From a virus (lineage: Duplodnaviria; Caudoviricetes), in the IMG/VR virus record IMGVR_UViG_3300043120_000083, positions 1-64,000 of that record: DNA of 64,000 bases; one strand, written 5' to 3'. The first letter of the stretch is position 1. Every line of letters begins with the position of its first letter. The notes under the pieces were generated by a model, which was not told the DNA's origin, did not search any database, and saw nothing but the letters and a program-made list of their open reading frames with translations. This document shows, piece after piece, positions 41,645 to 64,000 of this stretch. A program made the position numbers and the translations under genes.

Positions 41645-42676
41645 ATGCCAAAACCAATAGCAATACAAATAAACGATATACATATAGACAAGGGGAATAT
41701 AGAACAAGTCACTGATATATTCCATCAACTTTGTGATTTATGTATAAAAGAAAGTATCTACACAGTATTTATAGCCGGAGATATATTTGAAAGCAGAACA
41801 AGTCAAAGACTTGAAACTTTAAATGCTTTCCTAAATATATTGAACATTCTACATTCAAGTAATATTCATGCTTATCTAATACCCGGAAACCACGACAAAA
41901 CAAGGTATGATGTAAAAGAATCTTTTGTGGATGCTTTTAGTTATCATCCAGCACTTACAATATTCGATGATTATGACTATGAAGATTTAGAGAAGGGGGT
42001 AAGAGTTCATTTTATGCCATTCTTTAGAGAAGATGTTTGGTTAGAGAAATTTAAACCTGACTTTCTAAAAGATGGGAAAAATATTTTAATTACTCACGTG
42101 GCAATTACTGGAAGTGTAAATAATGATGGTTCAATAGTTGAATCTCCCCTTTCTATTAATACGTTTGAAGGTTTTGATAGAGTGTATTCAGGTCACTACC
42201 ACCAAACACAAGTGATTAAGAAAAATTTTATACATTGCCCTTCTCCCTATCAGGCTAATTTCGGAGAGGATAACAAAAAGGGGTTTACAATTATTTATGA
42301 TGATTTAACCTATGAAATTAAAAAAGCAAAGTTCAAAGAATACAAAAAGGTAAAGGTAAACCTTGATGAAATAAAAAAGGCCGAATTAGACGATTTAATG
42401 AAGGAATATTCCAATTCTGATGACAATATAAGGTTTGAAGTTTTAGGAAGCGAGAGCAAGGTTAAATCAATAAAAAAGGATAGTTTCTATGCTGTAGGTA
42501 TAGATATTAAGACAAAAGTAAAAGAAGTTGAGGATTCTCTAATTTATGCAGAACAGGATGAAATAGTATCTTTTAATAAAACTTCATTAGTTGAAGAGTT
42601 TAAAGAGTGTTGCGAAGAAAATGATTGGGAATTTGAAACCGGAAACAAATATTTAGAAAGGAAATTAAATGGCTGA
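41645..42676 (+). CDS. sbcD: SbcD/Mre11/gp47-like nuclease
   Basis: Metallophosphoesterase motifs DIH, GDIFE, GNHD, SGHYH. Confidence 0.88.
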   Translation: MPKPIAIQINDIHIDKGNIEQVTDIFHQLCDLCIKESIYTVFIAGDIFESRTSQRLETLNAFLNILNILHSSNIHAYLIPGNHDKTRYDVKESFVDAFSYHPALTIFDDYDYEDLEKGVRVHFMPFFREDVWLEKFKPDFLKDGKNILITHVAITGSVNNDGSIVESPLSINTFEGFDRVYSGHYHQTQVIKKNFIHCPSPYQANFGEDNKKGFTIIYDDLTYEIKKAKFKEYKKVKVNLDEIKKAELDDLMKEYSNSDDNIRFEVLGSESKVKSIKKDSFYAVGIDIKTKVKEVEDSLIYAEQDEIVSFNKTSLVEEFKECCEENDWEFETGNKYLERKLNG

Positions 42677-43442
42677 AATAGATATTTATTGTTGCGACAA
42701 TCTTGATTTGATGTCTGATATTCCAGATAATACGATTGACTTAATTTATTGTGATATTTTATACGGAACTGGTAGAAAGTTTAAAGATTATCAAGATTTA
42801 AATCCGGATAGGAAAATAATTGAGGAGCATTACATTCAAAGAATAAAAGAAATGCACCGAATATTAAAGCCAACAGGAAGCATTTATTTGCAAATGGATA
42901 CACGTATTAATCATTGGATTAGGTGTGTTCTTGATGATATTTTTGGGTATGATAATTTTAGAAATGAAATAATTTGGCATTATGAAGACACAATGCAAGG
43001 CAATAGTTCAATTAAGTTACCTAAAAAACATGACACAATTTATTTTTATTCTAAATCAAAAACTCACAGAATTAATAAAGTGAAAATACCTCTCAAAAAA
43101 CCTAAAAAAAGGGGGAATTTTAATTTCACAGAAGGTAAATTAAAATCTGTAGATGGGTTTTCAATGTATAATGAGAAAAATATTGATTCTGTTTGGAATA
43201 TAGGTGTTACATCTGTGATAAGTTCAAGAAGTAAGCAATTTATTGATTTTGAAACTCAAAAACCAAAAGAACTAATTGAACGAATAATTAAAGTGAGTAG
43301 TAACGAAGGTGATTTAGTTGCAGACTTTTATCTAGGTTCAGGAACAACTTCTGAAGTATGTAAAGACCTGAATCGTAATTTTATAGGGTGTGATATTAGT
43401 GAGAGAGCAGTAGAAATAAGTAAACAAAGATTAAATAAATAA
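42669..43442 (+). CDS. beta-class N4/N6 DNA methyltransferase with atypical DILY motif IV
   Basis: 'IDLIYCDILYG', 'RILKPTGSIY', 'TQKPKELIERII', 'DFYLGSGTT'. Confidence 0.85.
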   Translation: MAEIDIYCCDNLDLMSDIPDNTIDLIYCDILYGTGRKFKDYQDLNPDRKIIEEHYIQRIKEMHRILKPTGSIYLQMDTRINHWIRCVLDDIFGYDNFRNEIIWHYEDTMQGNSSIKLPKKHDTIYFYSKSKTHRINKVKIPLKKPKKRGNFNFTEGKLKSVDGFSMYNEKNIDSVWNIGVTSVISSRSKQFIDFETQKPKELIERIIKVSSNEGDLVADFYLGSGTTSEVCKDLNRNFIGCDISERAVEISKQRLNK

Positions 43443-43446
43443 CTAT

Positions 43447-44433
43447 ATGGCTAATAAAGAAAGTGTAAAAATATCAGACGTAGTTGCTAACGTAAAGAAA
43501 CGTTTCGGAGATGAAGCAATAGCTGGAGTGTCTAAAAACGTTGAATGGTTAAATACAGGCAGTATCGGATTAAATCAGGCCCTCGGTGGAGGTTGGGCTA
43601 AAGGCCGTATTGTTGAATTGTTTGGGTGGGAAAGTTCTGGAAAGTCAACACTTGCCCTTCACGCTTCAGCAGAATGCCAAAAGGAAGGTAAGGTTGTTGC
43701 ATATATTGATATGGAACATGCACTTGACCCTTTCTATGCTGAAGCATTAGGTGTAGATACAAGTGAAAAAAGTGGGTTGTGGTATTTAAGTCAACCAGAT
43801 GATGGGGAAACAGCTTTAGAAATAGTGCGTGAATTTGCTAAAAGCGATGAAGTTGGGTTGATTGTTGTTGATTCAGTTTCTGCTTTACTTCCACGTGCAG
43901 TTATTGCTGGAGAAGCAGGAGATCAGAAAATAGGTTTGTTAGCACGGTTAATGTCACAAATGGTTCCAACTTTAATTGCCCCTGCTAAAAAATCAGGAGC
44001 AGTGATAATGTTTATTGGGCAGTTACGTGAAAAAATAGGAATATCGTGGGGTGACCCTTCTGTCACTACAGGGGGGAATGCTTTAAAATTTTATTCATCA
44101 CAAAGAGCTCAAGTAGCAAGGAGTGGTCAAGATAAAGATGGGGATGAAATTGTTGCTAATGGGACACGTGTTAAGGTCATTAAAAATAAAGTCGCTCCCC
44201 CTTTTAAGCAAACTAAATTCTTTATTGAGTTTGGGACAGGTATTGATAAATTAAGAGAGGTTATTGATGTAGCTGTTGAATTAGGCATTATTAACAAGAA
44301 AGGTGCAGGATGGATGAGTTACGGTGATACTAAGTTAGGGCAGGGTGTTGATGCTGTTAAGATTTTATTGGAAGATAATCCTGAATTGCTTGAAGAAATA
44401 CAAGAAAAAATAAATGAAGAACTAAACAAATAG
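43447..44433 (+). CDS. recA: RecA recombinase
   Basis: 'GRIVELFGWESSGKST', 'IVVDSVSAL', 'ARLMSQ', 'TTGGNALKFYSS', 'KNKVAPPF'. Confidence 0.97.
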   Translation: MANKESVKISDVVANVKKRFGDEAIAGVSKNVEWLNTGSIGLNQALGGGWAKGRIVELFGWESSGKSTLALHASAECQKEGKVVAYIDMEHALDPFYAEALGVDTSEKSGLWYLSQPDDGETALEIVREFAKSDEVGLIVVDSVSALLPRAVIAGEAGDQKIGLLARLMSQMVPTLIAPAKKSGAVIMFIGQLREKIGISWGDPSVTTGGNALKFYSSQRAQVARSGQDKDGDEIVANGTRVKVIKNKVAPPFKQTKFFIEFGTGIDKLREVIDVAVELGIINKKGAGWMSYGDTKLGQGVDAVKILLEDNPELLEEIQEKINEELNK

Positions 44434-44435
44434 TT

Positions 44436-46439
44436 ATGAAATTCGTCTCAATTAAAGCTAAAAATTTTCTTTCTTTTAAGGAATTAGAATATAACTTCAA
44501 ATCTCACCCTGTGTTAATTCAGGGTGAGAACTTAACAGAACCAGAAAGTCAAAAATCTAATGGTTCTGGCAAGACTACAATACAATGCGCTATTGAATAT
44601 GCTTTATTGACAACTACCTCACGTAAAGTTAGGGATGCAGAATTAGTATTTTGGGGGGAAAAAGAGGGCAGTGTAGAACTGGAAATTTATTGTGCTGTAC
44701 GCAAACAATCACTAATTATTGAGCGTAAGTTGCCTGTTAAGGGTAGCAATAAACTTGAATTGTGGTTGAAAAAAGGGGAAGAAGTTACCCCTGTTAATTT
44801 TTCTACAGTAGCAGACGGTAACAAGTATATTCTTGATTGGGTTGATTTAAGTAAGGAAGATATTCAGAACTTCTATATAGTCAACAAGGAACGTTACACT
44901 TCCTTCTTTTCTTCTCCTAACGCAAAGAAAATTGAATTAATTTCCCGGTTCTCTAATTCTTATATGATTAACGGTGTTGATAAGTTAGTACAGGAAGATG
45001 TAAAGAAGTTGGAAGAAGTAATAAGAGAAAAAGAAATAAACAAATCTGCTATTCAGGGAGTGATTGACGATTCCAAGGAAGAGATTGATAAATTAGAAAA
45101 TGAAGACTTTGAAGAAGAGAAAGAAAAGAAGATTAAATATAAAAGGTTAGAAATTGTAGAAGTCGGGAATGAGATAATTGAAGGAATTGATTTACGTAAA
45201 AACCTTGAAGAAAAGAATAAAGAAGTTTCTAAAAAGTTAGAATCAACAGGAAAGGAAGTAGGTGAATTAGAAACCAAAATTAAAGAACTAAACAAGGTTT
45301 CTTTTGAAGAAGAGTATAATAAGATAGAAGAAAAAGTAAAGGTTGTTAACACAGATATTGATAAGAAAAGTAAGGAAAAAAGAACTGTGAAATCATCCAT
45401 AGATGAAATTTCAGATATGATGGATGAAATAAATAAGAATATTAAAGGTGCTGTAAAATGTCCAAAATGTTCACATGAGTTCTTGGTTGGAGACCCGGAA
45501 GTTGATATTGAGGAAGAGAAAAGGGAATTGATAGACGTTGAAAAACTTTACAATTCCACTAAAACAAAACTAACTTCTATTAATGATGTTATTGAAGAAC
45601 TAAATAAGAAAGTAGATAAAATAAATTCTGAAAAAACAGTAATATCTAAGAAAGAAGAAGAACACAACAAAAAGGTAAGGGGGTTGAAACGTCAGTTGAG
45701 AGATATTACAGAAGAGGTTGATAGTTTAAATAAACAAATATCTCAGAATAAAAACTCTATTGAAAACTCAGTTCTTCAGGAACAACACCTAAACACAAAA
45801 ATTGAATCTTTAAAACAACAAATTAAGGAAATAAAAGCACAAACAGGTAATTCTGAAAGAATAAAAGAACTGAATGAGAAAATTGCAACTAAAACGCAAG
45901 AACTTGAAAAGGTTGAAAAAGCAATAAAAGAAAAAGAAACTGAGCTTTACAATACAAGTCAATGGGTATTTAATTTTAAGAAGTTTTACGGTCATTTAGC
46001 CAATAAATCACTGAAAGTTATACAAGGGTATTGTAATAAGTATTTAGGAGAAATAAACAGTGATTTACAAGTGAAATGGGAAGGTTTTAAGATGAAAGCG
46101 GACGGAACACTGTCTGAAAAGATTACTCCTTATATTATGCGCTCTGGAGAGATGAAAGACTTCTGGTCTTTTTCAGGAGGAGAAAGGGCAAGGTTAGATT
46201 TTGCTATGATCCTCACTATTCAGGGAATTATTAATAGTTCACATAAATATGGAGGCGTAGAATTTATAAGTTTGGATGAAGTTTTGGAAGGAATTGACGA
46301 TGTAGGTTTGGGTAATCTAATGAAGTCTTTAAAGAACATGGATAAAACAATCCTTCTAACAACACATGTAACAGACAGGAATACCCCCGGAGATATATTA
46401 TTAGTGAGAAAAGTAAACGGAGTATCAACATTAAATTAA
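44436..46439 (+). CDS. sbcC: SbcC/Rad50/gp46-like ATPase
   Basis: Walker A 'NGSGKTT', coiled coils, zinc hook 'CPKC', signature 'FSGGE', Walker B 'LDEV'. Confidence 0.9.
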   Translation: MKFVSIKAKNFLSFKELEYNFKSHPVLIQGENLTEPESQKSNGSGKTTIQCAIEYALLTTTSRKVRDAELVFWGEKEGSVELEIYCAVRKQSLIIERKLPVKGSNKLELWLKKGEEVTPVNFSTVADGNKYILDWVDLSKEDIQNFYIVNKERYTSFFSSPNAKKIELISRFSNSYMINGVDKLVQEDVKKLEEVIREKEINKSAIQGVIDDSKEEIDKLENEDFEEEKEKKIKYKRLEIVEVGNEIIEGIDLRKNLEEKNKEVSKKLESTGKEVGELETKIKELNKVSFEEEYNKIEEKVKVVNTDIDKKSKEKRTVKSSIDEISDMMDEINKNIKGAVKCPKCSHEFLVGDPEVDIEEEKRELIDVEKLYNSTKTKLTSINDVIEELNKKVDKINSEKTVISKKEEEHNKKVRGLKRQLRDITEEVDSLNKQISQNKNSIENSVLQEQHLNTKIESLKQQIKEIKAQTGNSERIKELNEKIATKTQELEKVEKAIKEKETELYNTSQWVFNFKKFYGHLANKSLKVIQGYCNKYLGEINSDLQVKWEGFKMKADGTLSEKITPYIMRSGEMKDFWSFSGGERARLDFAMILTIQGIINSSHKYGGVEFISLDEVLEGIDDVGLGNLMKSLKNMDKTILLTTHVTDRNTPGDILLVRKVNGVSTLN

Positions 46440-46876: not shown

Positions 46877-47361
46877 AAAAAGTTTTAGCAATTGACCCCG
46901 GAGACACAGAATCAGCTTATGTGTTATGGGATGGTGAGAATATTATAGACAAAGCGAAAGAAAAGAATGATATTGTTTTAAGAAAAATATCTGAAATATT
47001 TTTTGATGTTCCTAATTTAGAAGTAGCTATTGAAATGGTTGCTTCGTATGGTATGCCAGTAGGTAAAACTGTATTTGACACATGTGTTTGGATTGGAAGG
47101 TTTATTCAAGTTTGTGACAGTTTAAGTGTAAAATACAGACAGGTTTATCGTAAAGAAATAGTTAGTCATATATGTCATTCTGCAAGAGCAAAAGATTCAA
47201 ATGTTATTCAGGCATTAGTGGATAGGTTTGGAGATGTTCACGAACATGGGAAATATGGGAAAGGAACAAAGAAAAATCCGGGATTTTTTTACGGGTTCTA
47301 TAAAGATGTTTGGCAATCATTTGCTGTAGGGGTTTTTTATTTTGATAATTTTGCAGAATAG
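46873..47361 (+). CDS. RuvC-like Holliday junction resolvase
   Basis: 'VLAIDPG', 'VAIEM', 'DVWQSFAV'. Confidence 0.7.
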   Translation: MKKVLAIDPGDTESAYVLWDGENIIDKAKEKNDIVLRKISEIFFDVPNLEVAIEMVASYGMPVGKTVFDTCVWIGRFIQVCDSLSVKYRQVYRKEIVSHICHSARAKDSNVIQALVDRFGDVHEHGKYGKGTKKNPGFFYGFYKDVWQSFAVGVFYFDNFAE

Positions 47362-53538: not shown

Positions 53539-54870
53539 ATGAATTACGTTTTAAGAGATTATCAAGAAAGGGCAGTTCAGGATGGATTAAACTTCTTCCG
53601 TTCTAAAAGCAAAAAGAATGGGTATATGGTGCTTCCTACCGCAGCAGGGAAATCAATTATCGTTGCTAATATAGCTAAACAACTGAATACCAACGTTTTA
53701 GTTTTACAACCCACCAAGGAGCTTTTATTTCAGAACCATGAAAAATTTATTTCATACGGCTATGATGCTTCAATCTACTCAGCAAGTTTTGATAGCCGGG
53801 AAGTAGGACAAGTGACTTTTGCAACGATAGGGAGTATCTACAAGAAACCTGAATTATTTAAAGATTTTCATTATATCATCATTGATGAGTGCCATTTAGC
53901 TTCCCCGGACGATAGCTCAATGCATAAAAAGTTTTTTAATGAATTGAAAGTTAAGGTTTTAGGGTTAAGTGCGACACCATTTAGGCTGAAAAGCTACAAC
54001 TTCCCAACCCGTCACTCTAAGTTAAACTTTCTTGACCGAATGAGGCCAAAGATTTTTAGTGAACTGGTTCATGTTACTCAGATTCAAGAAATGACAGAAA
54101 GAGGTTACTGGGCACCTCTGGGATACATTAGTAAGCCTTTTGACCGTTCTAAGCTTAAAGTAAATTCAACCGGAGCAAACTACACAGATGATTCTATAAA
54201 ACAAGCTATGATTGAGCAGGATGTTGTTCAACAGGCTTACGAAATGGCTTTGATATTAAAGAAAGAAGGTAGGAAGAAGATTTTAATTTTCATGCCCGAA
54301 ATAGCAATGGCTGAAGAGCTTGCTGAAATGTTAGGGGTTAATGCTGTAAGCAGTAAAACAAAGAAAAAGGAAAGGGAAGAGTATATTAATAATTTTAAGG
54401 CTGGAATTGATTTTGCTATTATAAACGTTAATGTGTTGGCTGTTGGATTTGATGATCAAAGAATAGATGCAATAATAGATGGTAAACCCACTATGTCTCT
54501 GGGTATTTATTATCAGAAGTATGGGAGAGGGGTGAGGGTTGATTTATCCACTAATCCGGTTAAGCATGATTGCCTGATTGTTGATTTGGTAGGTAACTAC
54601 GAAATGTTTGGCAAAATAGAAGATTTCATAATAAAAAAGAATGCAATAGGCAAATGGGCTTTGTTTTGTGGAGATAAGCAACTAACAAATACAGAACTTG
54701 TAAAGGATAAAAATGTAAACCTTGAAGATGAAATAATGGGGTTTGGTAAATATAAAGGAGAGCCTTTCAGGTTCATACCTAAAAGTTACTGGAGATTTAT
54801 TCGAGACAACTTCAAAAGAAGTGCAGAAAATGAGAAGTTATTTAATTATATAGAAACTATTGAATTGTAG
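53539..54870 (+). CDS. SF2 DEAD/DEAH-box helicase (YejH/UvsW-like)
   Basis: 'LRDYQ', 'LPTAAGKS', 'IIDECH', 'LSATPFR', 'QKYGRGVR'; C-terminal 'FGKYKGE' domain. Confidence 0.9.
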   Translation: MNYVLRDYQERAVQDGLNFFRSKSKKNGYMVLPTAAGKSIIVANIAKQLNTNVLVLQPTKELLFQNHEKFISYGYDASIYSASFDSREVGQVTFATIGSIYKKPELFKDFHYIIIDECHLASPDDSSMHKKFFNELKVKVLGLSATPFRLKSYNFPTRHSKLNFLDRMRPKIFSELVHVTQIQEMTERGYWAPLGYISKPFDRSKLKVNSTGANYTDDSIKQAMIEQDVVQQAYEMALILKKEGRKKILIFMPEIAMAEELAEMLGVNAVSSKTKKKEREEYINNFKAGIDFAIINVNVLAVGFDDQRIDAIIDGKPTMSLGIYYQKYGRGVRVDLSTNPVKHDCLIVDLVGNYEMFGKIEDFIIKKNAIGKWALFCGDKQLTNTELVKDKNVNLEDEIMGFGKYKGEPFRFIPKSYWRFIRDNFKRSAENEKLFNYIETIEL

Positions 54871-55078
54871 GCAAATGAATGATATGATAAAAGAAATAGT
54901 TGAGCGTAAACTAAGTTATAATAAAAAACAATTGCAGAAATTTATAGATGTAGGTAATAAATCTGCAATTCGTGACTATGAAGTAAGGTGTCATACATTA
55001 GAGGATATACTTGAAGATGCAGACGAAGCGAATGAAGGTCAACAACCAGGCAGCAACTGCAATATTACCGCATGTTAA
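54860..55078 (+). CDS. hypothetical protein of the distal cassette, possibly frameshifted from a zinc-ribbon C-terminus (55071-55178)
   Basis: 72 aa ending NCNITAC*. The +1 frame continues HVNVSVCPKCGC...WCQNEECDFVEAD*. Confidence 0.5.
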   Translation: MNCRQMNDMIKEIVERKLSYNKKQLQKFIDVGNKSAIRDYEVRCHTLEDILEDADEANEGQQPGSNCNITAC

Positions 55079-55183
55079 CGTTTCGGTTTGCCCTAAATGC
55101 GGTTGTAATAAAATTACTGGAGATGGAACGAAAAGCTGGTGTCAAAATGAAGAATGTGACTTTGTGGAGGCAGACTGAGCGTT

Positions 55184-55272
55184 AACGTCCCGGCTTGTAT
55201 GTGCCGTGCAGGCCGCACACAGTAAATTTTCACGGCACTAACTTAACAAGCATGGCATATTACAAGCTTGTT
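55184..55272. repeat. attC-like site S1
   Basis: AAC(55184), arm GCTTGTATGTGCCGTGC (55193-55209), arm GCATGGCATATTACAAGC (55250-55267), GTT(55270). Confidence 0.8.
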
Positions 55273-55575
55273 AGAAAACGTTTTAGCGCGATGGGCAATA
55301 ATATGATATCAATTCACGATTTAAAGGAAAATCTTTGTAAAAAATATTATGGGAGTAATAGAAAAGTGTATAGACAATGTGACATGAATCAACTTTTGAG
55401 AATGTGGTCTGATTTAAACCATTTAACAGAATTACATGAAAGGACTAGGCTTGTTCCTTACAACCTTGAATTTAGAAGTAAAAAAGCCATCCCTATTTAC
55501 AACGCCCACTTATCAGTATTACAGAAGAAGTACCCACATATTTTAGAATTTCAACAAATGAGGCACATACAATGA
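55252..55575 (+). CDS. cassette hypothetical protein (start uncertain: 55252, 55291 or 55303)
   Basis: Open frame; the first ATG lies inside the right arm of S1. Confidence 0.55.
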   Translation: MAYYKLVRKRFSAMGNNMISIHDLKENLCKKYYGSNRKVYRQCDMNQLLRMWSDLNHLTELHERTRLVPYNLEFRSKKAIPIYNAHLSVLQKKYPHILEFQQMRHIQ

Positions 55576-55793
55576 TTTCACAAATAGCAATTATGATTTT
55601 TGGAGCTTCAGCAATTTGGTTTGTGAGTAGAACTGAAAAATGGAAACGATGGGGCTATATATTAGGACTGTGTGGACAGCCATTTTGGATATATACAACT
55701 ATACAAAATGAACAGTGGGGAATTTTAATCATGACATTGGTTTACGCTTATTCATGGGCACAAGGAATTTGGAATTATTGGATTAAAAAATAG
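55572..55793 (+). CDS. cassette small membrane protein (PnuC/SemiSWEET-like three-helix)
   Basis: 73 aa, three TM helices, 'WGYILGLCGQPFWIY..QWG..GIWNYW'. Confidence 0.6.
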   Translation: MISQIAIMIFGASAIWFVSRTEKWKRWGYILGLCGQPFWIYTTIQNEQWGILIMTLVYAYSWAQGIWNYWIKK

Positions 55794-55797
55794 ATAT

Positions 55798-55974
55798 ATG
55801 GAAACGATTTTTACTAAATTAAGTGGTAATACTTCTGGAAATAAATATGGAGGTTATACAGATCAAAGCATTGTAATAACTCAAATAATTGATGGAGAGC
55901 AGAAAGTTATTATCCTAAATAAAAAAGAGTTAGAAGAATTAGAAAGAGTTATAGGCGCTAAATTTAAAGCTTAG
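55798..55974 (+). CDS. cassette hypothetical protein (58 aa, not in ORF track)
   Basis: METIFTKLSGNTSGNKYGGYTDQSIVITQ...AKFKA*. Confidence 0.55.
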   Translation: METIFTKLSGNTSGNKYGGYTDQSIVITQIIDGEQKVIILNKKELEELERVIGAKFKA

Positions 55975-55999
55975 ACTTGCGGGAAGGAAATGTTTTTCT

Positions 56000-56120
56000 A
56001 ACGTTGAGTATATGATTTCGGTGGCGATTGATTGCAGGACTTTTCGCATACCGACTAACTAACAAGACTGCACAGTGGTTAAATTCGACACCTTAACGCC
56101 ACTGAATTATATACATTATT
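56000..56120. repeat. attC-like site S2
   Basis: AAC(56000), GTATATGATTTCGGTGGCG (56008-56026) / CGCCACTGAATTATATAC (56097-56114), ATT(56118). Confidence 0.8.
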
Positions 56121-56199
56121 AGGTGCTGTACGGTAAATAACCGATAAACTTGATTTGAAAAACTAACGTAAAAAATTAAAAAATAGGGAGGAAATTTTT

Positions 56200-56940
56200 A
56201 TGAAATATATGGGAAGTAAAAACAGAATTGCAAAGCACATTTTACCTATAATGCTAAAATATAGAACACCTGAAATGACTTGGGTAGAACCTTTTGTTGG
56301 CGGTGCAAATATGATTGATAAGGTTGAGGGTAAAAGAATAGGTGGAGAATACAATAAGTATATTGCCGAAATGTGGAAAGCACTTGAAGCAGGATGGATT
56401 CCAAGAAGCGACTATACGAAGGACGATTACTACAACATAAAGGCGAATATGGATAGAAACCCTGCTGAAGCGGGATATGTTGGGATTGCAGTAAGTTATT
56501 GTGGTAAGTGGTTTGGTGGATATGCTGGACTTTGCGACAATAAAAGCCGTGGGCCTGTTGACTACCAAAAACAGGCATACAACAACTTAATAAAGCAATT
56601 GCCAAATATTAAAGGTATTAAATTTATACATAGTAGCTACCAAGACTTAGAAATACCACCAAATAGCCTTATTTATTGCGATCCTCCTTATGAAAGTACA
56701 ACAAAATACAAAGACGACTTTAACCATGCTGAATTTTGGCAATGGTGTAGAGACAAATCAAAAGAAGGACACACCGTATTTGTGAGTGAATATAATGCTC
56801 CAGATGATTTCTACTGCATTAAAAAGGTACAAACAAATACGCAACTTGGAAATGGCTGCCAGACAGGAAGCCAAAATAAGTGCGATAAACTTTTTACCCC
56901 AATGGCTGCGATAGCAGACAAAGAGCGTGGGCTTTTTTAA
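56200..56940 (+). CDS. cassette-borne Dam-like (D12 class) DNA adenine methyltransferase
   Basis: 'KYMGSK', 'EPFVGGAN', 'YCDPPY', 'VFVSEY'. Confidence 0.88.
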   Translation: MKYMGSKNRIAKHILPIMLKYRTPEMTWVEPFVGGANMIDKVEGKRIGGEYNKYIAEMWKALEAGWIPRSDYTKDDYYNIKANMDRNPAEAGYVGIAVSYCGKWFGGYAGLCDNKSRGPVDYQKQAYNNLIKQLPNIKGIKFIHSSYQDLEIPPNSLIYCDPPYESTTKYKDDFNHAEFWQWCRDKSKEGHTVFVSEYNAPDDFYCIKKVQTNTQLGNGCQTGSQNKCDKLFTPMAAIADKERGLF

Positions 56941-56995
56941 TTTTTGGTAATATACTACGAACCTTCATTAAGAGAACGAAGGCAGTATTGCACCT

Positions 56996-57268
56996 AACGG
57001 TAAATGCAAGGGTATGTGCTGCCTTGAAAACTGTACAAAAGTAGATACGAGTAAATAACGATTAAATAATTAAGCGATGGCAAAAATTAATGAATTTGAG
57101 ATAAGCATGGTTTGTTATAATGAAGATAACAAATACACATTAGAAGAAATAAACGATATGCTTGTAGAATGGGCTGAAAGTAAAGATATATACTTAGGTG
57201 GCTCTGTTAAACCGTGTGCGCCGGAGGAAACTTCGGACGAGAGCGCAGCATTACCTTTGCATGGTGTT
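56996..57268. repeat. attC-like site S3 with 222-nt coding loop
   Basis: AAC(56996), ATGCAAGGGTATGTGCTGC (57004-57022) / GCAGCATTACCTTTGCAT (57245-57262), GTT(57266). Confidence 0.75.
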
Positions 57269-57391
57269 AGCCAACAACGTGAACTGTTATTGGCTTTTGC
57301 TAAATGGGAGTACGAAAGTGCAGAATTTGACGACACTAACGAATACTTAGTTGACAAGTTTTTGGAAGAAAAAGCCAATAATTGTGGCTAA
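57077..57391 (+). CDS. cassette hypothetical protein reading through site S3
   Basis: 104 aa. 'AALPLHGVSQQRELL' is encoded by the right arm and GTT box; the stop TAA overlaps the next AAC box. Confidence 0.7.
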   Translation: MAKINEFEISMVCYNEDNKYTLEEINDMLVEWAESKDIYLGGSVKPCAPEETSDESAALPLHGVSQQRELLLAFAKWEYESAEFDDTNEYLVDKFLEEKANNCG

Positions 57392-57514
57392 CGTCAAACT
57401 TGTATAAAATGGCGGGGATATGTAGCACTGACGTATCAACCCGGCATAAACCTTAAATAACAGTGCAAGCGGGCTAAAAAGTCACCACAACCCCGCTTTT
57501 TTATACAAATTGTT
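57390..57514. repeat. attC-like site S4
   Basis: AAC(57390), TTGTATAAAATGGCGGGG (57400-57417) / CCCCGCTTTTTTATACAA (57491-57508), GTT(57512). Confidence 0.8.
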
Positions 57515-57531
57515 GTGGTGCGTTTTTGTTT

Positions 57532-57789
57532 ATGTTTGACAATTGCATATCACAATTAAGGCACGATGTTCAGAAATATCAGGATATATTGAACGCTATT
57601 GAACAGGCTCAACAAAAATTACCTGAGTTTAAAGTAAAGGGCCCTGGGTCAAAGCATGAGTTTTATCTCAATTGTATTGAAGACTGGAAAAAACAAATTG
57701 AAGAATTAGAGGTCACACTTTTACCATCTATGAAAGAATTTGAAGAAAAATATAAAAACAAACACCATTTAAAGGAATTGGGTTTTTAA
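57532..57789 (+). CDS. cassette hypothetical coiled-coil protein
   Basis: 85 aa from ATG 57532; fills the segment between the GTT and AAC boxes. Confidence 0.6.
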   Translation: MFDNCISQLRHDVQKYQDILNAIEQAQQKLPEFKVKGPGSKHEFYLNCIEDWKKQIEELEVTLLPSMKEFEEKYKNKHHLKELGF

Positions 57790-57797
57790 TGCACCAC

Positions 57798-57883
57798 AAC
57801 GGTACGGCAATATGATTAGTTGCCACACCACAGACTTTGAAATTTAGTAATAATTTGACAGGCAATTAATTATATTGCTTGTC
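57798..57883. repeat. attC-like site S5
   Basis: AAC(57798), GGCAATATGATTAGTTGCC (57806-57824) / GGCAATTAATTATATTGCT (57861-57879), GTC(57881). Confidence 0.8.
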
Positions 57884-57901
57884 ATAAATCTGATAAAAAT
57901 T

Positions 57902-58090
57902 ATGAGGAAACTAACTCAAGAACAAAAACAAATGATGGATAGAGCAATAAAGTTTGCACCAGCACGACAGATATTTATGTGGGTGTGGTGGGAGATTTTT
58001 TGCCACCGAAAAGCAGATAAACTTATAAAATGTGTAGAAGTTGGAATGACTTGGATCGCTGCATACACAATCGCAAAAAATGTGCGATAA
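57902..58090 (+). CDS. integrase-proximal cassette hypothetical protein
   Basis: 62 aa from ATG 57902. Confidence 0.55.
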   Translation: MRKLTQEQKQMMDRAIKFAPARQIFMWVWWEIFCHRKADKLIKCVEVGMTWIAAYTIAKNVR

Positions 58091-58099
58091 TTTTTATTT

Positions 58100-58144
58100 G
58101 TTTATAACTATTATATATAAATATTTACCTTTAAACATTTGATT
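58100..58144 (-). other. putative attI-like site
   Basis: GTTTATAAC (58100-58108; minus strand GTTATAAAC) closes the last cassette. It is followed by AT-rich DNA and the integrase start, not by a hairpin. Confidence 0.5.
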
Positions 58145-58954
58145 ATGAATATAAAACACAAATCAACATTAGGAAAATTTGAAAAATATCTTAACCTTAA
58201 AGGATATTCTAAAAGGACTATTGATATGTATATTCATTACACAAAAGAATATATTAATAGTTTTAATAAGCCAGCCATACATTTAACAATTAAAGATTGT
58301 CAGAATTATATAGAATCATATAAATTTTCTTCTAAATCTCAACAAAACCAAATTTATTCATCTTTAAAGGCATACTATAAAAGTGTGTTGAATATTGATC
58401 TTTCACATAAAATATTTTTAGAACGTCCCAGAAAAGAAAAACGTCTTCCACAAATAATAGAGAAAGAATACCTATTGTCCTGTATCAATAATATCAAAAA
58501 TTTAAAACACAAGTCAATAATTTCTTTAGGGTTTTCGGTAGGATTAAGAGTTTCTGAGGTTTGTAATTTAAAGATTGAAGATATTGATTCAAAAAGAATG
58601 ATTATTAATATAAGGCAAGCTAAAGGGAGAAAAGATAGGGTTGTGCCCTTATCTCAGAATATACTTAATCTTTTAAGGGAATATTATAAACAATACAGAC
58701 CAAAAACTTATTTATTTAACGGGCAAAATTCAATCAAATATTCTCCAACTTCCTGCAATAAAATAGTAAAGAAATATATTGGGGAACAATATCATTTTCA
58801 CCAATTAAGACATTCATCCTTCACCTCTCTTTTAGAATCAGGAACAGATTTAAGGATAATACAAAAACTTGCTGGTCATCAAAATTCCAAAACTACAGAA
58901 CTTTATACACATGTATCAAATGAGACTCTTTCTAAAATAAGCCTTCCTATTTAA
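58145..58954 (+). CDS. integron-integrase-like tyrosine recombinase
   Basis: N-terminal SAM-like 'GYSKRTIDMY', 'PRKEKRLP', R 'GLRVSE', K 'AKGRKDR', HxxR 'HQLRHS', 'GTDLRIIQKLAGH', Y 'TTELYTHV'. Confidence 0.9.
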   Translation: MNIKHKSTLGKFEKYLNLKGYSKRTIDMYIHYTKEYINSFNKPAIHLTIKDCQNYIESYKFSSKSQQNQIYSSLKAYYKSVLNIDLSHKIFLERPRKEKRLPQIIEKEYLLSCINNIKNLKHKSIISLGFSVGLRVSEVCNLKIEDIDSKRMIINIRQAKGRKDRVVPLSQNILNLLREYYKQYRPKTYLFNGQNSIKYSPTSCNKIVKKYIGEQYHFHQLRHSSFTSLLESGTDLRIIQKLAGHQNSKTTELYTHVSNETLSKISLPI

Positions 58955-59418
58955 TGCAAACAATCACTATCTATACAGACGGTTCATGTTACTATAAAAC
59001 CCGACAAGGAGGTTTTGGTGTTTATATAGTAAATACAGGTCGGGCAATACATAAAGGGTACGATAACACTACCACAGCACGAATGGAGATTAGAGGGGTG
59101 CTAACTGCAATAAAACAGATAAAAAACACTCCCTGTAGAGTGATAATAAAATGTGATAACGAATATTGTGTAAAAACAATCCGGGAAGGTTGGATTTACA
59201 AATGGGCACATGAAGGATGGGAAGGAAGAAAAAATAGTGATTTATGGCAGGAAGTTTTGGTAGAGATAAATAAAAGACCTAACGTTGTGTTTCGTTTAGA
59301 ATGGGTAAGAGGACACCAAAAAGACTTGAATGACGAAGATACTTTCTATAACAACTTAGTTGATAAACTTGCAGACTATAAACAATTCACAGAAAGAGAA
59401 ATAGATTTAAAAGAATAA
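58954..59418 (+). CDS. rnhA: ribonuclease HI
   Basis: 'IYTDGS', 'TTARME', 'DNEY', 'KNSDLW', 'WVRGH', 'NNLVDKLA'. Confidence 0.92.
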   Translation: MQTITIYTDGSCYYKTRQGGFGVYIVNTGRAIHKGYDNTTTARMEIRGVLTAIKQIKNTPCRVIIKCDNEYCVKTIREGWIYKWAHEGWEGRKNSDLWQEVLVEINKRPNVVFRLEWVRGHQKDLNDEDTFYNNLVDKLADYKQFTEREIDLKE

Positions 59419-59423
59419 AACCT

Positions 59424-60884
59424 ATGAAAGATTCAATTTACCAATCAAAGATTTATGAAATTTACGACAACACAAACAAAAACATCTTTATTAATGCCAG
59501 TGCCGGCAGCGGTAAGTCGCATATTTTAAGGCAGTTATGTAAAAGAACACCTCCGAATAAAAGAATATGTTTTTTAGCTTTCAATAAAAGTATAAAAGAG
59601 GAAGCAGAGGTAAAATTCCCTCCTAAGGTTGACATCAGTACTTCACACTCTAAAGGCTATAAGATTTTACGAGATAATATAAATATGAATGTAACCCTAA
59701 ATGAGAATAAAAACTTCATCTATTGTAAAAACACATTAAGAGATAAGAAATTCCCTAACCAACGTAAAAGAAATGCCTACTTTTTTATTATTAGTGACAT
59801 CATAAACTTTGTGAAGTTAAACCTTGCCCCACACACAATAGAAGGAATAAATGGAATATGCCAAAAGTTTGGTATCCCGGTAAGCCCGGAACAAATAAAA
59901 GACACAATTAAGGTATTGAAAGAAATAGAGAGTTGGGAGAAGAACTTGAACGGGAAGAAACCAAAGTTTATTAATTATACTGATATGCTTTATCTGGCTG
60001 TCACGAAAGTTAAACCTGAGAATTTCCCTAAGTATGATGTTGTGTGCCTTGATGAAGTGCAAGATTTTAACGTTCTTCAACAAAAATTAACACTTAATCT
60101 TTTGAAGCCTAACGGTAGATTAATAGCAGTAGGAGATGAAAAACAAAATATCTATGGATTCATAGGAGCTTCATTAGATACCTTTAATTTCTTCAAGAAT
60201 AGACCAAATACTGAATCATTAACTCTCCCTATGACGTACCGTTGTGGAAAGAAAATAGTTGAGTTAGCTAATACTATCTTTCCTGAAGGAACAATCCCGT
60301 TTGAAGAAAATAAAGATGGGGAAATACGTAAAGGAGAAGTAATAGGAGCAACTGATGGGGATTTGATTATTTGCCGGAACAATAAACCTCTAATTAAAGC
60401 ATGGATAAAATTAGCTGCACAAAAACAAAAAGCGTATATCATAGGCAAAGACTTCGGATTTACTTTAAAAGGTATATTGTTCGGACTTAAACATATTACG
60501 GACATACAGGTAGTTCTATCGGACAAAATAACGGAGTTAGTTGATTTAGGTATCACCAACCCAACTTCTAATAAATCATATCAAGCATTGAAAGAAAAAT
60601 GTGATATAATAGAATTACTATATGAAGAAATTGGAGACCTAAGAGAAGTAACAAAAGTAATAGACAGTATATTCCAGAAAGATGAAACAGGGAAAGGAGT
60701 AAGGATGTCAACCATACATAAAGCCAAAGGGCTGGAGGCTGAAAGATGCTTTATCCTAAATTGGGGATTGTTACCTTCAGAATATGCAACAACAGAAAGC
60801 GAACTGTATGGGGAACGTTGTCTTCAGTATGTAGCAATAACAAGAGCAAAAAGCGAATTAGTATTTACAGAAATAGATGTTTAA
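59424..60884 (+). CDS. UvrD/Rep-like SF1 helicase
   Basis: 'ASAGSGKS', 'LAFN', 'LDEVQD', 'VGDEKQNIYGF', 'TYRC', 'STIHKAKGLE', 'YVAITRAK'. Confidence 0.92.
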   Translation: MKDSIYQSKIYEIYDNTNKNIFINASAGSGKSHILRQLCKRTPPNKRICFLAFNKSIKEEAEVKFPPKVDISTSHSKGYKILRDNINMNVTLNENKNFIYCKNTLRDKKFPNQRKRNAYFFIISDIINFVKLNLAPHTIEGINGICQKFGIPVSPEQIKDTIKVLKEIESWEKNLNGKKPKFINYTDMLYLAVTKVKPENFPKYDVVCLDEVQDFNVLQQKLTLNLLKPNGRLIAVGDEKQNIYGFIGASLDTFNFFKNRPNTESLTLPMTYRCGKKIVELANTIFPEGTIPFEENKDGEIRKGEVIGATDGDLIICRNNKPLIKAWIKLAAQKQKAYIIGKDFGFTLKGILFGLKHITDIQVVLSDKITELVDLGITNPTSNKSYQALKEKCDIIELLYEEIGDLREVTKVIDSIFQKDETGKGVRMSTIHKAKGLEAERCFILNWGLLPSEYATTESELYGERCLQYVAITRAKSELVFTEIDV

Positions 60885-60900
60885 TATATAAATAATAACT

Positions 60901-61200
60901 ATGAACTATTTAATTCCAATCCCTAACGGGCAATGCCTTTCAACTAAGAGATTGAAAGAGGTTAAAAAATTTATCCCTGAGAATAACGTTCTCAGGTTAC
61001 ATTTAGTAAATGAGAAACTTTCTCTAAATCAGAATAAGAAATACCAACCTCAACCGTACATCGTTCAAATAACTCAAAAAGAAATGGATGAAATAAAGAA
61101 AGAGATCAATAAAAAAGCAAAGTATAATTTGAATGAGGTTTATATCCTTGTTCAATCTCGTAATTTACCAATTGTAAAAATAGAAGTAGGAAATGAATAA
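60901..61200 (+). CDS. hypothetical protein
   Basis: 99 aa ORF. Confidence 0.5.
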   Translation: MNYLIPIPNGQCLSTKRLKEVKKFIPENNVLRLHLVNEKLSLNQNKKYQPQPYIVQITQKEMDEIKKEINKKAKYNLNEVYILVQSRNLPIVKIEVGNE

Positions 61201-63862
61201 ATACACAAGAGAGGAAGCTGTAAAAGCAGCAACGAAGTATTTCGGTGGAGATAGTTTAGCCGGGAATGTGTGGACAGATAAATATTCTTTGAAGGATTCA
61301 GAAGGGAATATTTACGAAAAAACCCCGGATGATATGCACTGGAGGTTAGCAAGGGAGTTAGCACGTATTGAAGCTAAATACCCAAACCCCATGAGCGAAG
61401 AACAAATATTTGGGCTATTAAAAGAGTTTAGGTATTTAGTTCCTCAAGGTGGCCCGATGGCTGGTATTGGAAATAATTTTGTAACAACATCCCTCAGTAA
61501 CTGTTTCGTCATCCCATCTGCAAAAGATTCATATTCAGGGATAATGAAGACAGATCAAGAACAGGTTCAAGTTATGAGGCGAAGAGGAGGTTGCGGACAT
61601 GATATTTCAACCCTTCGCCCTCATGGAACAACAGCCAATGGAGCTAAACTTAAAGGGAATACTGGTTCTACTTTGTTTATGGAACGTTTCTCTAATTCAA
61701 CAAGGGAGACTGCTCAGGACTCAAGAAGGGGAGCACTTATGTTAAGTATGGATATAAAACATCCAGATGCAGAAAGATTTATTGACATGAAAGTTGACAC
61801 TAATAAAGTTACCGGGGCCAATATTTCTGTAAGAATTTCTGATGATTATATGGAAAGCGTTAAGCACAAAGGAAAGTTTAAACAACAATTCCCTATTGAT
61901 TCAGAAAAACCCATAATGGAAAAAGAAATAGAAAGTAAAAAATTGTGGGATAAAATAATTCATAATGCGTGGAAGTCAGCAGAACCCGGAATTTTATTTT
62001 GGGATAATATTTTAAATGAATCTCCAGCTAAAGGGTATGGGGAGGATTGGAAAGAAACATCAACTAATCCGTTAGCCAATTAAATAACGTGCGGATTTAA
62101 AACCTCTTCTTATTGACTTGGACGGTGAACACACACCTACAGGGGGCAAGTTTAAATACAGCTTGAGAGACTAAGCGAAGAGGACACGAAAGTGTATGCG
62201 ATAGTCCAGCGCACAGTAAGAAAGTGTTTGATACTTACGGTGTGAGGCGGTGAGATTCCCCTTAACCCACAAGATAGCTGTAGATTACTGGCTATCAACT
62301 TGTTTTCTTATGTGAATAATCCTTTCACTAAAGAGGCACAATTTGATTTCGGTTTGTTTAAAAAGCATGTAAAATATGCCCAAAGATTAATGGATGATAT
62401 AGTTGACCTTGAGATTGAAAAGATTGATAAAATTATTGAAAAGGTTTTAAAAGACCCAGAACCATTAGAAGTAAAACAAGTTGAATTAAACCTATGGAAA
62501 AACGTAAAAGAACGTGCATTAGAAGGCCGAAGAACCGGATTAGGAGTAACTGCTGAAGGAGATATGTTAGCAGCCTTAAACATGGTATATGGTACTGAAT
62601 TAGCCACTTCATTTAGTGAAGACGTTCATAAAAATTTAGCCATTGCTGCTTATGAGTCTTCTATTGATATGGCTAAAGAAAGAGGAACGTTTAAAATATG
62701 GGATAGAGAAAAAGATTTGAATGGTGGTTCTAAGTTCATTGATCGTATTTACAAACAACTTTCTTCAGAATACCAAAGGAAATGGATTGAGACTGGACGT
62801 AGAAACATTGCTTTGTTGACCATTGCTCCAACCGGAACAACCAGCCTGATGACACAAACAACTTCAGGAATTGAGCCTGTATTTTTGCCTTTCTATAAAA
62901 GAAGAAGGAAGACAGAAGACCCTGAAAAATGTGTATTTACTGATGAAGTTGGTGATATGTGGGAAGAATACATGGTTGTTCACCCTAAATATAAAATGTG
63001 GTATGAGATAAATAGAATGGGTTTTGTAGGTATTGATAAAGTAGATATTGAAGACCTCACGGAAGAAGAGATGGAAACCATCTACAAAATGTCTCCATAT
63101 TACAAAGCAACTTCTAGTGATGTTGATTATTTAGGTAAAGTTGATATGCAGGGTAGAGTTCAAAAGTGGGTTGATCACTCTATTAGTGTCACTATCAATA
63201 TGCCTAAAGAAGTTACAGAAGAAACTGTAGGTGAAGTTTACATGAAAGCATGGGAAGTTGGCTGTAAAGGGGTAACTGTTTACCGTGACGGTTCCCGGTC
63301 TGGAGTTCTTATCTCAGGTAAGGAAGAAAAGAAAGAAGGGGAAATAATTTACAACGATGCCCCTAAAAGACCCAAGAATTTGCCTGTAGATGTTTATCAC
63401 AAAATGGCTTTGGGTAAAGAGTTTACTATCCTTGTAGGTCTTTTAAAAGGAAAACCGTATGAAATATTTGCTTTTGAACAATTATCACAGTCAGAATTTC
63501 CTAAAGAGATAGAAAGGGCAGAGTTAACCAGAGTACGTAAGAATCACTACAGGTTAACCGGATACCGTGGAGAACAAAAGTTTGTCATCGAGAATATTGT
63601 GGAAAATATGAATGATGATGAGAAGTTTCAAACCCGTGATTTTTCTCGTAGTTTAAGGCATGGAGAACATCCTAAATATATCTGTAATGATATTGATAAG
63701 AGTTCTTTTGTGAGTAGTTTTAGGAAGGTTGTAAGTCGGGTTTTGAAAAACTATCTTACTAATGAGGATGTGAAAGACAAATGTCCTGATTGTGGGGGAG
63801 AACTTAAATTTGAGAGCGGGTGCAAACAATGCGATAATTGTGGGTGGTCAGCCTGTGGATAA
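61193..63862 (+). CDS. nrdJ: class II (adenosylcobalamin) ribonucleotide reductase; exons 61193-62072 and 62247-63862 (831 aa spliced)
   Basis: 'SLSNCFV', 'RRGALM', 'SAEPGILF'; splicing restores 'STNPCGEIPL'; 'TIAPTGT', 'GIEP', 'GCKGVTVYRDGSR'; C-terminal Zn ribbon. Confidence 0.93.
62073..62246 (+). ncRNA. group I self-splicing intron (174 nt, no ORF)
   Basis: Exon end AAUCCGU pairs with IGS GCGGAUU (62091-62097), U.G at the splice site. P3 CCUCUUC/GAAGAGG; P7 GACUA/UAGUC; P8 ACAC-GAAA-GUGU; terminal G at 62246. Confidence 0.9.
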
Positions 63863-63896: not shown

Positions 63897-63947
63897 AAAC
63901 CGTTGTAACTTGTTCTAATAAAATGGGTTGCAACGGTTTTCTTATTT
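63897..63947 (+). terminator. intrinsic terminator after nrdJ
   Basis: AAACCGTTGTAACTTGTT / AATGGGTTGCAACGGTTT stem plus T-rich tail. Confidence 0.7.
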
Positions 63948-64000
63948 AAACTCAATATAAATAACAATATTTTTCAATGTTTCGCTTTTTTCATACATAT

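Follow-up and report, generated by a model that had tools for sequence, protein, structure and literature searches.

The region 55.1-58.95 kb of the DNA stretch analysed here (the window, 64,000 nucleotides (nt), i.e. the first 64 kb of the 101,026-bp phage record IMGVR_UViG_3300043120_000083) is most likely a phage-encoded, integron-like platform for gene capture. The textbook example of rapid gene capture in bacteria is the integron, and the phage version would consist of an Xer-type recombinase, a double-stranded attI-like site upstream of the recombinase gene and five cassettes, possibly with a sixth as a relic. The evidence lies in a family of hairpin sites, in complementarity between the two ends of each gene-bearing body, in a fixed position and strand of the arrays relative to the integrase gene, in junction polymorphisms of related elements and in the way each hairpin stays linked to its downstream body. 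A first-pass annotation made from the sequence of the window had proposed that the phage owns a cassette platform with an adjacent recombinase. This was supported by matches to a site model built from other loci, by box complementarity in bodies outside the window, by arrays upstream of related integrases and by differences located at the AAC junction.

Hairpin sites, boxes and the adjacent recombinase

The five attC-like sites in the window (sites A to E, Table 1) are built on one plan, with YTAAC, a G and 4-7 nt, an arm of 17-19 nt, a loop, the complementary arm, 1-3 nt and finally GTTA, which is ATTA in site B and GTCA in site E. Loop length varies from 36 to about 220 nt. The distance from AAC to GTT in the five spacers is 83, 115, 267, 119 and 80 nt, and each spacer holds an imperfect 17-19-bp inverted repeat located 5-7 nt past AAC and 2-3 nt ahead of GTT; the repeat in site D (I2) spans 26 nt with 81 % complementarity and the one in site E (I7) is 89 % complementary. 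The first-pass annotation correctly described every spacer as an imperfect inverted repeat of 17-19 bp, whereas its spacer lengths (89, 121, 273, 125 and 86 nt) include the two triplets.

Box pairs were scored as the ungapped complementarity between the 8 nt that follow a GTT-type triplet and the last 8 nt ahead of the AAC closing the same body. A box had been assigned to each end of six bodies (C1 to C6, left to right), and all were found where the annotation had placed them. The bodies scored 5, 6, 6, 6, 7 and 5 of 8, as compared to a mean of 2.15 of 8 for random genomic GTT/AAC pairs, where a score of 6 is reached with a probability of 0.0066 and a score of 7 with one of 0.00076. Boxes across each hairpin scored 2, 2, 3, 0 and 2, which is the random level, and the early claim that boxes match within a body and not across a site is thus upheld (5-7 versus 0-3 of 8). 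The joint chance probability of the within-body complementarity in the window is about 1e-15. Outer-box complementarity extends up to 13 nt in the window, and the body of a satellite cassette at 76.3 kb in the same genome scored 7 of 8.

To describe the site family independently of the window, we aligned 33 non-redundant sites of the 80-105-nt class from other loci (alignment A2); sites of at most 70 nt were rare, with 3 candidates. The consensus hairpin showed compensatory changes on both sides in 19 of its 26 pairs, and the covariation score was 0.594, as compared to 0.164 for shuffled alignments (0 of 500 reached the observed value) and 0.06-0.14 for slid controls. A covariance model (R1) built from these sites, with zero window sequence included, was run over both strands of the 101 kb genome and recovered sites E, B, A and D together with the satellite site F, all on the + strand. 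R1 misses site C because of its loop of about 220 nt. Outside the array, R1 gave weak matches at 47057-47154 (−, E 0.11) and 63924-63989 (+, E 3.7).

The box rule is general, as 45.7 % of 210 bodies in IMG/VR viral loci reached at least 7 of 8, compared with 1.3 % of random pairs and 0.4 % of pairs across a hairpin. Homologous cassettes gave the same picture. The Dam-like methyltransferase of the window has cassette-borne counterparts in Polaribacter phage P12002L (77-81 % nucleotide identity) and in the viral locus L023 (65 %), and the boxes differ between the three copies while each pair is internally complementary, which shows that the box pairs co-vary between homologous cassettes. In the stems of 373 distinct sites, with strand-symmetric detection, the + strand carried 633 G-T and 141 A-C mismatches. 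This excess fits an integron model in which the + strand corresponds to the 'bottom' strand of the classical geometry, and it fits RNA folding equally well. Two G-T pairs in alignment A2 were invariant or nearly so (columns 12/98 and 30/84; 33/33 and 32/33), with G57801 and T57880, plus the corresponding stem position, as their counterparts in window site E, and the loop holds a conserved motif, AAATTTAG.AC. These features may take part in recognition, replacing the extrahelical bases of a classical attC.

The recombinase gene is intact. The open reading frame (ORF) encodes SAM-like and catalytic domains with a complete R-K-H-R-H-Y set and the sequence ...LYTHV..., its ATG lies 36 nt past the AAC at 58106-58108, and it is the sole PF00589 gene in the genome. 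The junction in the window reads AAC|TATTATATATAAAT (also given as AAC|TATTATATAT...). The first-pass annotation was accurate about an intact tyrosine recombinase with YTHV 36 nt past the last AAC, whereas its term 'IntI-like' did not stand in the strict sense. NCBIfam NF040815 (XerA / 'integron integrase') gave 180.6 bits, below the cut-off of 220, and TIGR02249 (IntI) gave 148.6 bits in two stretches, below the cut-off of 265. The score against PRK15417 was 87 bits (cut-off 435), and the Xer equivalog cut-offs were not passed either (XerC model 138 versus 335; XerD 137 versus 330). Among structures, the best sequence match was P. abyssi XerA (PDB 4a8e, 149.6 bits), whereas V. cholerae IntI (VchIntIA, PDB 2a3v) gave 99 bits in two stretches. 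Since query residues 189-217 span IntI residues 187-265 in the latter comparison (28 versus 78 residues), about 50 residues are missing and the recombinase is without the insertion that defines IntI. By these comparisons the enzyme is closest to XerA and is not a strict IntI. Among phage proteins, the integrases of Polaribacter phages Freya and Leef and of Cellulophaga phage Ingeline come nearest, with 34-38 % identity.

Array placement and junction turnover in related elements

Integrase relatives were collected by a search seeded with an alignment of six integrases. This gave at least 286 relatives in IMG/VR, where the 80 that were kept are 54-67 % identical and lie on contigs of up to 362 kb, and at least 507 in prokaryote genomes, mostly Bacteroidota. 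The best metagenome integrase was 71 % identical, on contigs starting at the junction. When 11 IMG/VR loci were compared protein by protein, the integrase alone was common to the window backbone, apart from a weak ribonucleotide reductase match in one of them. The relatives' loci share an arrangement in which small ORFs form an array upstream of the integrase and on its strand, parted by sites of the same kind. A first permissive hairpin scan (12-bp stem, at least 11 pairs) was uninformative by itself, with about 20 matches per strand in shuffled genomes, and became informative only after stricter scores and controls for strand and side. Upstream of the integrase and on its strand, the stem scan then found a density of 0.72 sites per kb, as compared to 0.05-0.06 on the other strand or downstream, and in 54 of 65 viral loci at least 2 sites were present within 4 kb upstream of the integrase. 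In agreement, 274 of 278 R1 matches in 74 viral loci were on the integrase strand, nearly all upstream. Dozens of unrelated phage backbones keep to this single order of array, junction and integrase, all on one strand.

The junction upstream of the homologous integrases is conserved as YTAAC|TA(Y)nATATAT, and the DNA to the left of AAC varies by locus. Loci L044 and L047 are 99.98 % identical over 8851 nt from the junction rightward and unrelated leftward, and the same pattern, 99-100 % identical to the right and unrelated to the left, was observed for L020/L023, L033/L034 and L030/L032. The most informative pair was L021 and L023, which share 118 identical bases ending ...GGAGCATAAC and are 97.6 % identical on the attI-integrase side. 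Between ...GGAGCATAAC and TATCATATAT, L021 carries one additional unit of 797 nt, in which the hairpin comes first, followed by GTTATGTACA, one ORF and the end TGTACATAAC. Judged from this alignment, the extra unit is a single cassette inserted at attI. The breakpoints in L021/L023 and L044/L047 share 4-6 nt. Cassette gain with a junction at AAC, as foreseen in the first-pass annotation, was accordingly seen in related elements, not in close relatives of the phage itself. Several independent metagenome and IMG/VR contigs (L173, L174, L177, L184, L006 and L008) have their first bases precisely at (C)TAAC|TA..ATATAT ahead of the integrase gene, which suggests that assemblies break there owing to population heterogeneity. 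We also considered the variable DNA left of the junction as host DNA beside a prophage end and rejected this, as the array is located mid-genome among replication genes in a phage record that is 96 % complete; a prophage-host junction is further ruled out by the identity of L021 and L023 on both sides of the single inserted unit.

The polarity of the mobile unit was determined from segments shared between non-colinear loci. A hairpin together with its downstream body was shared in 79 cases and a body together with its downstream hairpin in 1, and 39 cases showed upstream-body homology stopping at AAC. Because of this 79:1 polarity and the L021/L023 insertion, the unit is read as C-hairpin-GTTA...body...TAA, and the + strand exchange is placed near AA|C. 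The early division of the array into cassettes and separate spacers is not compatible with this, as the hairpin travels with the downstream body. On the same polarity the window holds five cassettes and a possible hairpin-less relic at 55079-55185, and the earlier count of six cassettes is retained for five hairpin-plus-body units and not for C1, for which the evidence is weak (box complementarity 5 of 8, P about 0.04). Either a hairpin-less relic cassette or the left half of the original attI may be present at C1. The bounds of cassette 5 were drawn from the C of one AAC to the AA of the next, with polarity taken from the relatives.

We propose a mechanism in which the body-specific boxes and the hairpin arms of an excised circle would fold together, on the + (coding) strand, into a single long attC, and in which the adjacent recombinase, as the presumed catalyst, would exchange strands near AA|C, the predicted position of the cleaved bond. 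Circular intermediates would be inserted at attI and cassettes would be excised between neighbouring sites, as with IntI. Phage DNA replication would supply the single-stranded DNA that folds and would resolve the product, and the array in the window may be active at present.

Relation to known systems and alternative explanations

The window shares several features with integrons, such as those of class 1 and the chromosomal integron of Vibrio cholerae. The gene for the tyrosine recombinase points away from the attI beside it, and cassettes are parted by imperfect hairpins with outer boxes resembling RYYYAAC...GTTRRRY. As in attC sites, structure is conserved and sequence is variable. The first box matches the last box of the same cassette, in the window as well as in the 210 viral bodies, and in the relatives new cassettes enter at the attI beside the integrase (L021 versus L023). 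There are also differences. The enzyme is without the IntI-specific insertion and scores below the IntI model cut-offs, and the cassette ORFs are inverted relative to the sites, reading towards attI and co-directional with the other phage genes; in classical integrons the ORFs point away from attI, with expression from Pc. The array thereby departs from a strict integron in two respects, the IntI domain and the orientation of the cassette genes. In addition, the phage hairpins are located 5' of their own gene and sometimes hold its start codon, the outer-box complementarity is longer in phage arrays (13 nt in the window, up to about 30 nt in P12002L), and the host of the array is a phage genome. 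Read on the complementary strand, the window has the classical layout, where G|TT opens a cassette and attC closes it, with the genes antisense.

Integron components in phages have been described before, and the statement in the first-pass annotation that integrons are regarded as chromosomal or plasmid elements is out of date. Qi et al. 2023 (Front Microbiol, PMC9892861) found such components in 21 phages, including clusters of attC sites lacking integron-integrases (CALINs) in virulent phages such as P12002L. In P12002L two sites were detected in divergent orientations, there was no integrase with those arrays, and the clusters were read as integron components carried by phages, with no junction, polarity or insertion events described (PMC9892861). 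We find at least 4 sites of the present family in this phage (L012; NC_028924, about 36.9-39.3 kb), around a Dam-like methyltransferase and a Mom-like gene, and P12002L_attC2 of PMC9892861 maps to the end of this array. It is among the phage attC-like sites that IntI1 recombined with attI1 (PMC9892861), which is a precedent for recombination at sites of this kind. The kind of phenomenon is therefore the same, with P12002L in common and a homologue of the methyltransferase inside an array of the same family, whereas the window adds a dedicated recombinase, an attI-like junction and cassette polarity, and its relatives add insertion events. A CALIN has at least 2 attC sites and no integrase nearby; here the recombinase starts 36 nt past the array, although IntegronFinder would probably class the array as a CALIN, its enzyme being without the IntI domain. 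Full-text searching of the literature turned up no phage-encoded array described together with a non-IntI integrase.

Two other systems come close in part. The best sequence matches of the window enzyme are Xer recombinases (XerC/D and archaeal XerA), and the CTX phage integrates through a folded single-stranded attP, which shows that folded single-stranded DNA can be a substrate for an enzyme of the Xer type. Xer systems perform dimer resolution at one dif site or integration of one element, and have no cassette arrays with specific boxes. The 'mobile regulatory cassettes' with promoter stem-loops (PeSL) in the hyperplastic regions of T4-type phages consist of small accessory genes among replication genes, separated by stem-loops and shuffled between relatives; this shuffling is ascribed to homologous recombination, with no dedicated integrase, attI or gene-specific complementary ends.

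Arrays matching R1 were also present in Bacteroidota chromosomes (contigs L142, L144, L158, L136, L139, L104, L155, L121 and L110), beside short integrases with 38-50 % identity, in genera including Gaetbulibacter, Seonamhaeicola, Flavobacterium, Gelatiniphilus, Flagellimonas and Croceitalea. The ORFs in the bacterial arrays have the classical orientation, opposite in strand to the form of the sites (11 of 11 examined), whereas in viral arrays they are on the same strand as the YTAAC...GTTA form (6 of 6 examined, likewise the window) and all read towards attI. The bacterial integrase is placed in two ways, either divergent from the array or upstream of and co-directional with it. These arrays have the look of an integron lineage of Flavobacteriia and Bacteroidia that has gone unrecognised. 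According to IntegronFinder 2.0 (PMC9024848) complete integrons are almost absent in Bacteroidetes, as expected if short integrases are filtered out. The family, in which small accessory genes enter singly at a fixed site next to the recombinase gene, is widespread in phages of Bacteroidota and appears to be undescribed as such. We lean, by a narrow preference, towards a wider view in which the window belongs to a large integron lineage, so far unrecognised, that spans Bacteroidota and their phages and is run by short Xer/XerA-like integrases without the IntI domain. The phage arrays would then mirror the bacterial ones, with cassette genes inverted to be read along with the phage genome, with hairpins ahead of the genes that sometimes provide a start codon and a short N-terminal leader, and with a separate pool of accessory or anti-defence cassettes swapped during co-infection.

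Some of our data weigh against a phage-owned platform. The box pairs of C1 and C6 are weak if taken singly, in contrast to the convincing pairs of C2-C5, and single-sequence folding of the window sites was weakly better than shuffles (z-scores −0.8 to −2.05), i.e. folding energy by itself is insufficient to make the case. The sites in A2 were pre-selected by the stem scan, which inflates the percentage of paired positions, though not the compensatory changes. As many as 52 bodies were shared from GTT onward without the hairpin, and this is not predicted by a single crossover point. The IntI insertion contacts the extrahelical bases in classical integrons, and recognition of folded sites without it would have no structural precedent in the clade. 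The whole P12002L record contains no PF00589 recombinase, so an array that has no neighbouring integrase can be maintained or can be acted on in trans. Finally, no close relatives of the phage were obtained for the helicase-to-RNase H interval, and cassette gain or loss in its own array is thereby not visible. In a blastn search against 50,697 phage records the methyltransferase gene was the sole match, relatives of the flanking helicase were at most 39-45 % identical, and the attI-integrase joint, sought as an exact pattern in viral and metagenome contigs, gave zero matches.

Given the P12002L array without a tyrosine recombinase, the most serious rival is a passive CALIN with cassettes captured from, or moved by, a host integron integrase, where the phage recombinase is an ordinary enzyme for lysogeny or dimer resolution and a neighbour by chance. 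It would agree with the simple annotation of the nearest homologues as integrases of Polaribacter and Cellulophaga phages, with related integrases and arrays in Bacteroidota chromosomes, and with the ability of IntI1 to recombine several phage attC sites with attI1 (PMC9892861). We regard it as unlikely, since it does not account for the fixed order of array, junction and integrase in unrelated backbones, nor for a conserved junction that abuts the integrase gene and receives insertions at exactly that point. The opposite ORF orientation in the 6 viral and 11 bacterial arrays further argues that the pools are not simply shared.

Homologous or microhomology recombination at conserved intergenic hairpins could also shuffle modules without any site-specific recombinase. 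Hairpins were indeed the most widely shared sequence between loci, with 940 hairpin-only high-scoring segment pairs, the 52 bodies shared without a hairpin point the same way, and the phage encodes SbcCD-like nucleases and functions for recombination and replication. Such a process gives no reason for body-specific complementary ends that co-vary even between homologous cassettes, and it leaves both the 79:1 asymmetry and the constant link to one integrase clade unexplained; with merely 4-6 nt shared at the L021/L023 and L044/L047 breakpoints, we find it improbable. Least probable of all is a static array with hairpins acting at the RNA level only (processing, stabilising, attenuation or translation), which would suit the G-T excess on the coding strand (G-U pairs in mRNA), the start codons in some loops and the co-transcription of hairpins with genes, and which is opposed by zero Rfam matches at 54.0-59.5 kb, by the lack of T-tails and of terminator calls at the sites in a terminator scan, by the insertion and replacement polymorphisms at AAC, and by the integrase link and by boxes that match even when as much as 1 kb of coding sequence lies between them.

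If the integron-like platform is real, it would provide a concrete mechanism for the turnover of small accessory genes, such as methyltransferases and probably anti-defence genes, in variable regions of phage genomes. Recombination at folded sites would then be possible without the IntI-specific domain, and integron finders that demand this domain would overlook a whole lineage in Bacteroidota and viruses. The cassettes would form a catalogue of short mobile phage genes, and the recombinase and its sites could become a compact tool for DNA insertion.

Cassette cargo and genome context

The cassettes carry small accessory genes, plausibly for host takeover or anti-defence (Table 1). Cassette 5 holds three ORFs, 55291-55575, 55572-55793 (a small membrane protein) and 55798-55974. 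The ORF of cassette 3 reads through the right arm and the R' box, and its weak PHROG match is limited to the part after R'. Its candidate start ATG is located in the loop of site C, from where the frame crosses the right arm and then the GTTA box before it enters the body (57077-57268). Similar loops with an ATG and a frame through the right arm and GTTA were observed in other viral loci (L007:1145-1201 and 3499-3552; L017:7318-7374).

Table 1. Coordinates of the array, its sites and the flanking genes (window positions, except site F)
Feature	Position	Strand	Description and evidence
SF2 (superfamily 2) helicase	53539-54870	+	ResIII/DEAD/Helicase_C; left flank of array; Pfam
Small zinc-ribbon-like ORF (body C1)	55017-55178	+	Weak PHROG matches; body between GTTAAC palindrome 55074-55079 and first R'' box
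Site A, attC-like	55176-55280	+	AAC 55184-55186, imperfect arms, GTT 55270-55272; R1 29.0 bits, E 9e-4; fold
Cassette 5 (predicted)	55186-56001	+	Hairpin A and three small ORFs; boxes GTTAGAAAACG / TGTTTTTCTAAC, 6/8; PHROGs
Site B, attC-like	55992-56128	+	AAC 56000-56002, 18/19-nt arms, ATT 56118-56120; R1 29.2 bits, E 8e-4; fold
Cassette 4 (predicted)	56002-56997	+	Hairpin B and Dam-like N6-adenine DNA methyltransferase 56200-56940; Pfam PF02086, phrog_56
Site C, attC-like, long loop	56996-57268	+	AAC 56996-56998, arms 57004-57022 / 57245-57262, GTT 57266-57268; sequence
Cassette 3 (predicted)	56998-57391	+	Hairpin C and ORF 57077-57391 (104 aa); boxes 6/8
Site D, attC-like	57382-57522	+	AAC 57390-57392, 18-nt arms, GTT 57512-57514; R1 21.2 bits, E 0.058
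Cassette 2 (predicted)	57392-57799	+	Hairpin D and ORF 57532-57789 (85 aa); boxes GTTGTGGTGCG / TGCACCACAAC, 7/8, P 0.0008
Site E, attC-like	57790-57891	+	AAC 57798-57800, 18-nt arms, GTC 57881-57883; R1 54.9 bits, E 8.8e-10
Cassette 1 (predicted), next to attI	57800-58107	+	Hairpin E and ORF 57902-58090 (62 aa); boxes 5/8
attI-like junction	58106-58144	+	AAC|TATTATATATAAATATTTACC... to integrase ATG; conserved motif in homologues
Tyrosine recombinase	58145-58954	+	269 aa, Xer/XerA-like; profile and structure comparisons
RNase H	58954-59418	+	Downstream backbone
UvrD-like helicase	59424-60884	+	Downstream backbone
Site F (satellite)	genome 76138-76276	+	R1 E 1.2e-9

The satellite cassette is located outside the window, at genome position 76138-76440 (L170:13138-13440), 18 kb downstream of the integrase. 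Its site F has perfect 19-bp arms and the boxes GTTAGCAACTG / TAGTTGCTAAC, and its gene is one Cys-rich ORF of 69 aa that starts within the loop. On its 3' side a second attI-like sequence, AAC|TCTCATATATAAAATC, was found, with no integrase beside it. A hairpin class of 120-140 nt, seen in site F (L170:13206-13268), L007 and L017, encodes a conserved leader (...T.Q/KLGI..V...).

The phage genome has 33 % G+C and a CheckV completeness of 96 %, and 129 of its 131 long ORFs are on the + strand. Its genes include those for a large terminase, a DNA polymerase, SbcCD-like nucleases and an NAD-dependent ligase, in line with its identity as a phage. The array is located mid-genome, between replication genes, and the 55-58 kb region stands out in this tightly packed genome by its five gaps between genes, which measure 112-225 nt and in some cases have a higher G+C content. 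A single terminator-like hairpin with a T-tail is present on the + strand of the region, at 58070-58088, at the end of the last cassette ORF and ahead of the attI-like junction and the integrase. Further downstream, the large subunit of ribonucleotide reductase (61193-63862) is split into two ORFs, 61193-62083 and 62300-63862. An Rfam search of the gap between them gave zero matches at E ≤0.1; the gap is about 220 nt, richer in G+C and structured-looking, and could be a small intron. The SbcD-/SbcC-like subunits (41645-46439) belong to a nuclease specific for palindromes or hairpins, which is worth noting in a phage that keeps long hairpin sites.

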